DNA from: a virus
Lineage: Duplodnaviria; Heunggongvirae; Uroviricota; Caudoviricetes
Reading direction: 5' to 3' (one strand)
Length of the DNA: 5,030 nucleotides
IMG/VR virus record: IMGVR_UViG_2534681831_000045
The notes under the pieces: generated by a model
Told to the model about the DNA's origin: nothing
Database searches by the model: none
Seen by the model: the letters and a program-made list of their open reading frames with translations, nothing else
Shown: positions 4,561 to 5,030 of the stretch, piece by piece
Layout: each line of letters starts with the position of its first letter
How positions within the stretch are numbered: the first letter of the stretch is position 1
Translations under genes and position numbers: made by a program

Positions 4561-4591
4561 TTTTCATTACCGCCCTTTCGGGCGGTCTCCT
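4561..4591 (-). promoter_or_regulatory. Structured 5' leader: SD (AGGAG) - GC-rich GAAA-tetraloop hairpin - start codon
   Basis: Seen on the minus-strand transcript: cAGGAGaccgcccGAAAgggcggtaatgaaaaATG. A perfect 7-bp stem (4586..4569) lies between the only SD-like element and the ATG. There is no U-tract after the stem in either orientation, so it is not a canonical terminator. The regulatory role is inferred. Confidence 0.35.
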
Positions 4592-4676
4592 GATGTTCTG
4601 AGGGTGCAGGAATCCCTCCGGTTAAGGATTAAATTTTATTTACAGAACTGAATTTAATTATTCAGATATACGTATC

Positions 4677-4702
4677 TGAACCGCCCCGGGTTTCCTGGAG
4701 AG
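4677..4702. repeat. Terminal inverted repeat of the IS3-family element (the end downstream of the transposase gene)
   Basis: Seen: TGAACCGCCCCGGGTTTCCTGGAGAG at the junction with flanking AT-rich DNA. The 3 bp immediately outside (atc, 4674-4676) would be the target-site duplication if the other end carries the same triplet; the other end is not in the window. Confidence 0.65.
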
Positions 4703-4718
4703 TGTTTTATCTGTGAAC

Positions 4719-5030
4719 TCAGGCTGCCAGATCATCGTTTCCGATGGAAGCATAATAAGCTTTTTCTGCTTCTGCCGGAGGAGTATGGCCCAGCCTTCCC
4801 AGCAATCGTCGATTGTTATACCAGTCCACCCACGTTAGTGTGGCCAGTTCCACTTCTGCACGGTTTTTCCAGCTCTTACGGTGTATTACCTCCGCTTTGT
4901 AAAGACCATTGATGCTCTCAGCCATCGCGTTGTCATACGAGTCGCCTGTACTCCCTGTTGATGCCAGTAATCCGGCTTCTTTTAGTCGCTCCGTATAGGC
5001 CAGTGACACATACTGAGAGCCTTTATCGCT
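4719..5030 (-). CDS. IS3-family transposase OrfB (DDE integrase core), C-terminal portion only; 5' part lies beyond the window
   Basis: Seen: the reading frame is open from the window edge (…SDKGSQYVSLAYTERLKEAG…) to stop TGA at 4721..4719. It contains the DSYDNAMAESINGLYKAE segment, which carries the catalytic E region of DDE transposases. The track's start at 5009 is only an internal GTG. Confidence 0.9.
   Translation of the reverse strand, partial: SDKGSQYVSLAYTERLKEAGLLASTGSTGDSYDNAMAESINGLYKAEVIHRKSWKNRAEVELATLTWVDWYNNRRLLGRLGHTPPAEAEKAYYASIGNDDLAA

Follow-up and report, generated by a model that had tools for sequence, protein, structure and literature searches.

The window analysed here, that is, the whole stretch of DNA at its full length of 5,030 bp, was 100% identical to positions 4,934,168–4,939,197 (reverse strand) of NZ_CP077473.1, the closed, complete chromosome record of Escherichia coli O111:H8 strain 8B, and corresponds to positions 12001–17030 of the strain 8B locus used for comparison with other genomes (L001). 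It contains one end of a lambdoid prophage integrated in dusA, in which a row of minus-strand early genes is followed by an untranslated spacer and then, directly, by the end of an insertion sequence. The features are as follows.

1–708: yjbM-like DUF2713 gene, chromosomal, at the start of the window
1071–1175: 5′ fragment of dusA (105 nt), adjoining the prophage end and marking the attachment site
after the dusA fragment, plus strand: two small genes of 178 aa and 57 aa
2273–2581, minus strand: PrtN-family (excisionase-like) protein, 102 aa
2591–3166, minus strand: Rv2179c-like 3′-5′ exonuclease, 191 aa
3163–3897, minus strand: DUF551 protein, 244 aa
3900–4112, minus strand: 70-aa open reading frame
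4144–4560, minus strand: 138-aa gene, the first remaining early-left gene, with its ATG at 4560
4561–4676, minus strand: untranslated spacer and leader of the first gene, 116 nt of the 146-bp native intergenic region
4562–4665, minus strand: conserved lambdoid intergenic cassette of ~100 nt with three hairpins on the mRNA strand
4648–4665, 4600–4618 and 4569–4586, mRNA strand: the three cassette hairpins
4651–4680, minus strand: weak hybrid promoter-like match (8/12)
4674–4676: ATC, the presumed surviving copy of a 3-bp target duplication, judged from its position beside the IS tip and from a scar in strains 95NR1 and 95JB1
4676/4677: deletion junction at which phage DNA meets the IS tip, flush with that tip
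4677–4703, minus strand: right terminal inverted repeat (IRR) of IS1203, with its outer tip TGAACC at 4677, assigned from the sequence and from comparison with the IRR and left inverted repeat (IRL) of a full copy
4677–5030, minus strand: window part of a one-ended remnant of IS1203 (an IS629 isoform), which runs on to L001 17448
4719–5030, minus strand: 3′ part of the transposase gene orfB, with its stop codon at 4719–4721

No integrase gene was present at the dusA-fragment end of the prophage. A GC-rich hairpin at 2245–2268 (aaaacccgccttcaggcgggtttttt), bordered by runs of A and T, separates the convergent 57-aa and PrtN-family genes and looks like a bidirectional terminator; in Rfam it gave weak sub-threshold matches only. 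The minus-strand frame at 3163–3897 is an uninterrupted 244-aa open reading frame with a C-terminal DUF551 domain, which RefSeq records as two 'incomplete' DUF551 pseudogene pieces. The 138-aa protein matched no Pfam family; the N-terminus of the 244-aa protein (MNTLTKEWLQNTITSIE) is similar to that of the 138-aa protein (MAELTKWLQNTITGIE), a likeness that, at the level of sequence, suggests a mosaic Ead/Ea22-like module.

The IS terminus TGAACCGCCCCGGG starts at position 4677. The original prediction had placed an IS629-like terminus there, about 117 bp upstream of the first gene and oriented like the phage genes, which agrees with a measured spacer of 116 bp (4561–4676) and an orfB fragment on the minus strand like the genes at 2273–4560. 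The element, however, is not an intact IS but a pre-existing one-ended fossil. It is 772 bp long and identical at all 772 positions, without a mismatch, to the right part (IS positions 539–1310) of the full-length 1,310-bp IS1203 of O111 strain SF26 102-1 (L003 14988–16297), a copy whose annotation includes the programmed frameshift. The remnant, labelled 'IS3-like element IS1203 family transposase, incomplete, missing N-terminus' in RefSeq, keeps no more of orfB than its last 729 nt, and orfA, the frameshift site and pseudoknot and the IS promoter region are all absent from it. Its inner break abuts a DUF968 gene that lacks its N-terminus, and the identical break occurs in 8B and in the reference O111 strain 11128.

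A simple insertion with target duplication is ruled out, as the IS stops at IS position 539 and no IRL was found downstream of it or anywhere else in the L001 locus. The expected ATC duplication was likewise present on the IRR side only; with the IRL side missing, a second ATC is absent, whereas a bona fide IS1203 insertion in strain 2009C-3675 has GAG on both sides. A search for the other IS end and for the duplicated atc, as had been proposed, therefore returned neither, nor does the assembly show a prophage that is complete apart from an intact IS flanked by direct repeats, the arrangement that had been named as speaking against a displaced control region. The idea of an insertion at this site fails for the present-day structure and is perhaps right historically, as a 2-bp scar in strain 95NR1, described below, suggests an earlier insertion at ATC.

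To define what lay upstream, the 8B locus was compared base by base with that of strain 11128 (L002). L001 equals L002 minus a single interval, L002 16677–21792 (5,116 bp, with a 2-bp TG ambiguity at the breakpoint), and the flanks of the two strains differ by four SNPs in 23.5 kb. Strain 11128 contains the same remnant, but 5,116 bp farther from the 138-aa gene. The breakpoint in 8B is the exact IS terminus, and both flanks are colinear with the undeleted relatives (11128 and 95NR1). Position 4676/4677 is accordingly a deletion junction and not the edge of a working IS, and we put the probability that it is an IS1203-bounded junction whose formation removed the control region of the prophage above 0.9. 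As a single continuous match the junction was found in one of 5,426 complete E. coli genomes, strain 8B itself. The junction also creates a perfect 8-nt inverted repeat, TTCAGATA/TATCTGAA, at 4661–4680, where the parent has 6 nt.

All of the 5.1 kb lost in 8B is present in 11128 and encodes a methyltransferase (SAM), a hypothetical protein, yfdR, yfdQ (DUF2303), yfdP, a CI-type repressor, Cro and CII. The regulatory part of the deleted interval comprises the following.

L002 19435–20137: ~700 bp of unannotated DNA, scanned for open reading frames and consensus promoters, lost in 8B
L002 20138–20830: CI-type repressor with Cro/C1 HTH and Peptidase_S24 domains, deleted in the window
L002 20928–21188: Cro-type HTH_3 protein, divergent, deleted in the window
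L002 21181–21732: CII/CP76 regulator (ymfL), deleted in the window

In relatives without an IS at the site, the sequence past 4676 runs into the methyltransferase gene and the early genes, and a CI-type repressor and a divergent Cro lie upstream of the leftward genes, the lambdoid early-left arrangement under repressor control. Any PL/PR promoters within the deleted interval were lost together with it. These relatives confirm the expectation that native early genes and a regulatory region had been deleted upstream of the operon, since they retain beyond 4676 what 8B lacks entirely.

The deletion in 8B is not the only loss. Strain CD45 (L108) carries the same dusA prophage free of the IS, and there ymfL is followed by Rha, an HTH protein, PerC, Dam, a LexA-like protein, RusA, KilA-N, a full DUF968 gene and Q. 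Every O111 genome examined has the remnant in place of ~5.1 kb of this stretch (L108 ~11795–16937, the replication/nin region from Rha to DUF968), and the O111 prophage was therefore already defective before the deletion in 8B. In total, ~10.3 kb of early region is lacking in strain 8B. CD45, free of the IS, and 11128, which has no IS at this site, supply the comparison that had been suggested for defining the lost content, and the inferred defectiveness of the prophage is upheld: the repressor, Cro and CII were lost in addition to the replication genes lost earlier, from which we infer that the prophage is non-inducible and fixed in the chromosome.

The deletion leaves five early-left genes without their native promoter region and repressor, and these genes are probably silent or weakly transcribed, a reading that follows from the lack of promoter matches in the DNA. 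A scan of 4300–5030 on both strands for consensus sigma-70-like promoters returned none, and on the minus strand of L001 16100–19400 it returned one weak site only, far upstream at 18969–18940. Upstream of the remnant, the DUF968 fragment and Q point opposite to the early-left genes. A promoter reading out of the IS, which the original prediction had offered as one source of expression while conceding that no convincing one could be identified by eye, is unlikely on the same grounds: the remnant lacks the IS 5′ promoter region, and the scan of 4300–5030 was empty on either strand. The best site came from a looser scan and was an 8/12 hybrid match, composed of TTCAGA at 4680–4675 (TTCA being contributed by the IS tip), an 18-nt spacer and TAAATT at 4656–4651, and not found in the parental sequence.

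IS ends that form hybrid promoters are a known phenomenon, and the junction might have supplied a −35 element from the IS tip (TTCAGA) to a phage −10 element (TAAATT), creating a new constitutive promoter for the exonuclease and PrtN-family genes for which the deletion was then retained. The match is the sole one of at least 8/12 on the minus strand in 4540–4900, and it was made by the junction, being absent from the parent. A match of 8/12 with an 18-nt spacer is nevertheless the chance expectation in AT-rich DNA and falls below the scan threshold, and the junction is carried by a single strain, hence shows no sign of selection. We regard such a function of the junction as very unlikely.

The spacer itself is more than a leftover. 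It had been described as encoding nothing, which holds insofar as open reading frames of at least 20 aa were limited to a 61-aa TTG-initiated frame antisense to the first gene and a 31-aa frame straddling the junction, neither of them credible; it does not hold for the ~100-nt cassette at 4562–4665. The description of this DNA as a short AT-rich remnant has likewise to be abandoned, as the cassette is common to many lambdoid phages and is not random sequence. It occurs at 86–95% identity between differing gene pairs in Rac-type, Stx2a and other lambdoid phages, and also in many IMG/VR prophage contigs. Its three hairpins have the sequences CUGAAU/AUUCAG, GAGGG-N9-CCCUC and ACCGCCC-GAAA-GGGCGGU, the last of which ends 9 nt before the start codon, and the RNA fold has a z-score of −2.6. 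An Rfam search of 4561–4725 at E ≤ 1 found no family, and the hairpins of the cassette copies showed only a small number of wobble-compatible changes, in a sample that was gathered by the exact hairpin pattern and is hence biased. Because the first half of the cassette in one of the ArgO145 copies leads directly into GGAGG-N8-ATG, we suggest that the cassette may act in translation initiation or mRNA processing. The GAAA-loop hairpin was also considered as a nut site, of which lambda has one per early operon; this reading was rejected, given that the cassette recurs between varied gene pairs and twice in ArgO145. The deletion endpoint lies 11 nt beyond the upstream edge of the cassette, outside it, and the cassette is therefore intact in 8B.

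To trace how the junction arose, the closest relatives of 8B, strains 95NR1 and 95JB1, are the most informative. Both retain the 5.1 kb, of which 8B lacks 5,114 bp relative to 95NR1. The flanks of the deletion, 11,676 bp on its left and 1,891 bp on its right, show no differences between 95NR1 and 8B, and in the comparable region the two strains share both of the SNPs that separate them from 11128, namely T at position 4331 of the window and the ubiA allele WP_000455229.1. At the site itself, 95NR1 has a 2-bp deletion (TG/GT), at L114 11676/11677, a position equivalent to 4676/4677 of the window. The site reads CGTATCTGTAACC in 11128 and CD45, CGTATC--TAACC in 95NR1, and CGTATC joined to TGAACCGCC, which begins TGAACC, in 8B. 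The match length of 4,681 bp in 95JB1, the same as in 95NR1, implies that 95JB1 carries the 2-bp deletion as well. The scar is the only indel between 95NR1 and 11128 within 18.7 kb, and the chance that an indel of 95NR1 falls on the junction is about 2e-4. It looks like an IS excision scar.

The identity with 95NR1 also bears on whether the deletion is real. An assembly could have collapsed two direct repeats, so that 8B would in truth have a full IS1203 at 4677 together with an intact 5.1 kb; two direct IS copies 5 kb apart are the classic situation for such a collapse, and the junction is known from one genome only. Yet the record is a closed, complete chromosome, the remaining locus is base-perfect against 95NR1, and comparable IS-flush deletions occur in several independently assembled O111 genomes, all of which renders an artefact highly improbable.

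On the simplest reading of these observations, an event at the junction site occurred in the common ancestor of 8B and 95NR1/95JB1, most plausibly the insertion of a full IS1203 at ATC, after which the lineages diverged in outcome. With slightly better than even odds, we propose that the 8B structure originated in two steps, the insertion of a second IS1203 followed by its recombination with the remnant, while the sister line lost the new copy by imprecise excision. The starting point would have been the dusA prophage of the O111 lineage, already with its dead one-ended 772-bp remnant comprising IRR and the 3′ part of orfB. The ancestor of 8B and 95NR1/95JB1 would then have acquired a full-length IS1203 at ATC (4674–4676), oriented like the remnant, and this would have given an intermediate whose right junction would read CCGGGGCGGTTCA-ATC-TGTAACCTTACG. 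In 8B, homologous recombination between the right 772 bp of the new copy and the remnant would have deleted the interval, and the product, which would combine the IRR junction of the new copy with the broken inner end of the old remnant, has the structure observed in 8B. In 95NR1/95JB1, imprecise loss of the IS would have left the 2-bp scar.

Several findings bear on these steps. Strain 2009C-3675 provides an analogue of the intermediate: a full IS1203, flanked by a GAG duplication, lies 281 bp from the remnant and points the same way; this pair of elements is a ready substrate for recombinational deletion. The predicted intermediate itself, a full IS at the exact site with the 5.1 kb kept, was absent from the 5,426 complete genomes. 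Strain 8B contains ~34 other IS1203-like matches and an intact iee gene for the IS-excision enhancer (IEE; KP516_RS17240, L116 41370–43730, NZ_CP077473.1 3336369–3338729), annotated in RefSeq as 'TOTE conflict system archaeo-eukaryotic primase domain-containing protein' and sharing its protein accession with other O111:H8 strains. The ISEc8 beside iee is intact in 8B and interrupted by IS1203 in many other O111 strains. IEE promotes excision of IS3-family elements and flanking deletions, and O111:H8 carries iee (PMC9397093, PMC9943667); IEE-dependent excision and flanking deletion are attributed to Kusumoto et al. 2011 as cited in PMC9397093, PMC9943667 and bioRxiv 10.1101/2023.06.07.543989. 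The present case is similar in that 8B likewise has an intact iee, the scar of 95NR1/95JB1 resembles imprecise excision, and IS copies with part of their length deleted, as in the 772-bp remnant, are among the products reported (PMC8860574). It differs in that the scar is not a simple microhomology product; the participation of IEE in this event is putative. Simple recombination at the 3-bp duplication or at the AACC microhomology would not be expected to yield the 2-bp scar, and 'imprecise excision' is our interpretation of it.

The end structure of the two-step origin is identical to the product of a direct deletion anchored at the IS end. IS3-family elements generate deletions beside their own inverted repeats (PMC8860574). 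In a direct deletion, no second IS would ever have been present: the IRR tip of the remnant would have been cleaved by transposase supplied in trans from the ~30 full IS1203 copies, possibly with IEE. We hold this to be possible though clearly less probable. At the same modest odds, the tip would have been joined to the site 5.1 kb away by 'sloppy' strand transfer or by breakage, resection and microhomology end-joining, as modelled previously (PMC9943667, bioRxiv 10.1101/2023.06.07.543989, PMC8860574). The deletion in 8B is flush with the IS tip, as is an independent 401-bp deletion in strain 7-15 45A with the tip of the same remnant, which under the two-step origin would require a further insertion and recombination; the phage endpoint TG(T)AACC is similar to the tip TGAACC, with a 2-bp exact overlap, and the intact iee of 8B also fits. 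The parental target as a whole, TGTAACC, resembles the IS tip. Such a deletion has to contend, however, with a remnant that has one end only. The IS3-family (IS911) transposase normally requires two synapsed ends and prefers to act in cis. The junction of 7-15 45A is moreover essentially without microhomology, and the sister-strain scar at the exact position would go unexplained, unless the scar was earlier and the match a chance of about 2e-4. A stronger version, in which the dead remnant is a deletion hotspot whose IRR is used by transposase in trans together with IEE to give repeated tip-flush deletions (401 bp and 5.1 kb), we consider unlikely; if it were true, IS 'fossils' would go on eroding prophages long after losing the ability to transpose, and the sister-strain scar would be what repair left behind after an abortive or one-strand transfer at this target.

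Insertion and recombination, the origin that we favour, would also sit well in the wider record of the O111 population. Among the 5,426 complete E. coli genomes, 38 matched at least 80% of the 6.7-kb region across the interval, and 36 O111 genomes other than 8B keep both the remnant and the 5.1 kb. Other IS events in or near the early region were as follows.

7-15 45A, L106 5892/5893: independent loss of 401 bp that extends into ymfL and is flush with the same remnant's IRR tip
2009C-3675, L111 9517–10826: full IS1203 in ymfL, with a GAG duplication
2015C-3101, L107 1516–2825: full IS1203, oppositely oriented, within the methyltransferase gene
SF26 102-1, L003 14988–16297: yfdR′-IS1203-Rz, a full copy bordering a larger deletion
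TW05614, L110 9791–11100: full IS1203 beside ymfL, bordering a larger deletion, with its IRL abutting rrrD
7-16 37A, L113 about 1600–2900: IS1203 at the start of the 178-aa gene
7-55 62A, L112 4690–5898: ISVsa5 in the 138-aa gene

The early region of this prophage is a local IS sink. The IRR flank of the TW05614 copy is 3 bp shorter (without 'acc') than the flank of the remnant in 11128. We had considered this full IS as a recombinant between the remnant and a new copy and dropped the idea, as the shorter flank shows that it is not a simple recombinant. An insertion hotspot common to other strains was also rejected, as the two-piece matches came from IS3-family insertions of no relation to this one, which lie in a similar methyltransferase gene in the Qin prophage.

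The 8B junction is reminiscent of the small deletions associated with IS629/IS1203 in EHEC prophages, which are credited to Ooka et al. 2009 (Genome Res 19:1809) in PMC9943667 and PMC3271280: the element is the same, the host is of the STEC type with many copies, the target is a prophage, and the deletion starts from an IS end. In O157, 62% of the IS629 copies are in prophages or prophage-like elements (PMC3271280). By contrast, the IS at the 8B junction is a one-ended 772-bp remnant, and the 2-bp scar at the site in the sister strains points to a history of insertion, recombination and excision rather than to a single step. The insertion-deletion-excision model of IS3-driven rearrangement (Kanai et al. 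2022, PMC8860574) is similar in its sequence of an IS insertion followed by a deletion adjacent to the inverted repeat that joins distant genes, and recombination among IS copies was explicitly proposed there as an enhancer of such rearrangement; in contrast to that model, no new operon is evident in 8B, where DUF968′/Q (plus strand) faces the early-left genes (minus strand).

In its outcome, the prophage resembles a familiar class. Rac and Qin are defective lambdoid prophages without immunity or replication modules, and the 8B prophage is likewise locked in, with some early-left genes (exonuclease, excisionase-like) and late genes kept. Unlike in Rac and Qin, the steps of decay can be read here, as the intact (CD45), half-decayed (11128, 95NR1) and further-decayed (8B) states are all available.

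Erosion of prophages by IS629/IS1203 in STEC is already well documented (PMC3271280, PMC9943667, PMC8860574), and the locus adds no new element or mechanism; its interest is modest and lies in the sister-strain scar and in deletions that recur flush with the tip of a dead IS. The window has its gene order because the immunity and control region was deleted, and this is what the abrupt end of the early-left genes at an IS tip means for the prophage, whose normal induction and excision are presumably precluded. The O111 series runs from the intact prophage through the remnant, the remnant with scar and the remnant with deletion, and includes several further IS events that occurred independently within the same 10 kb. 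As a natural record of how IS elements dismantle a prophage step by step it is unusually complete, and it could serve for studying the influence of IS629/IS1203 and IEE on STEC genomes.
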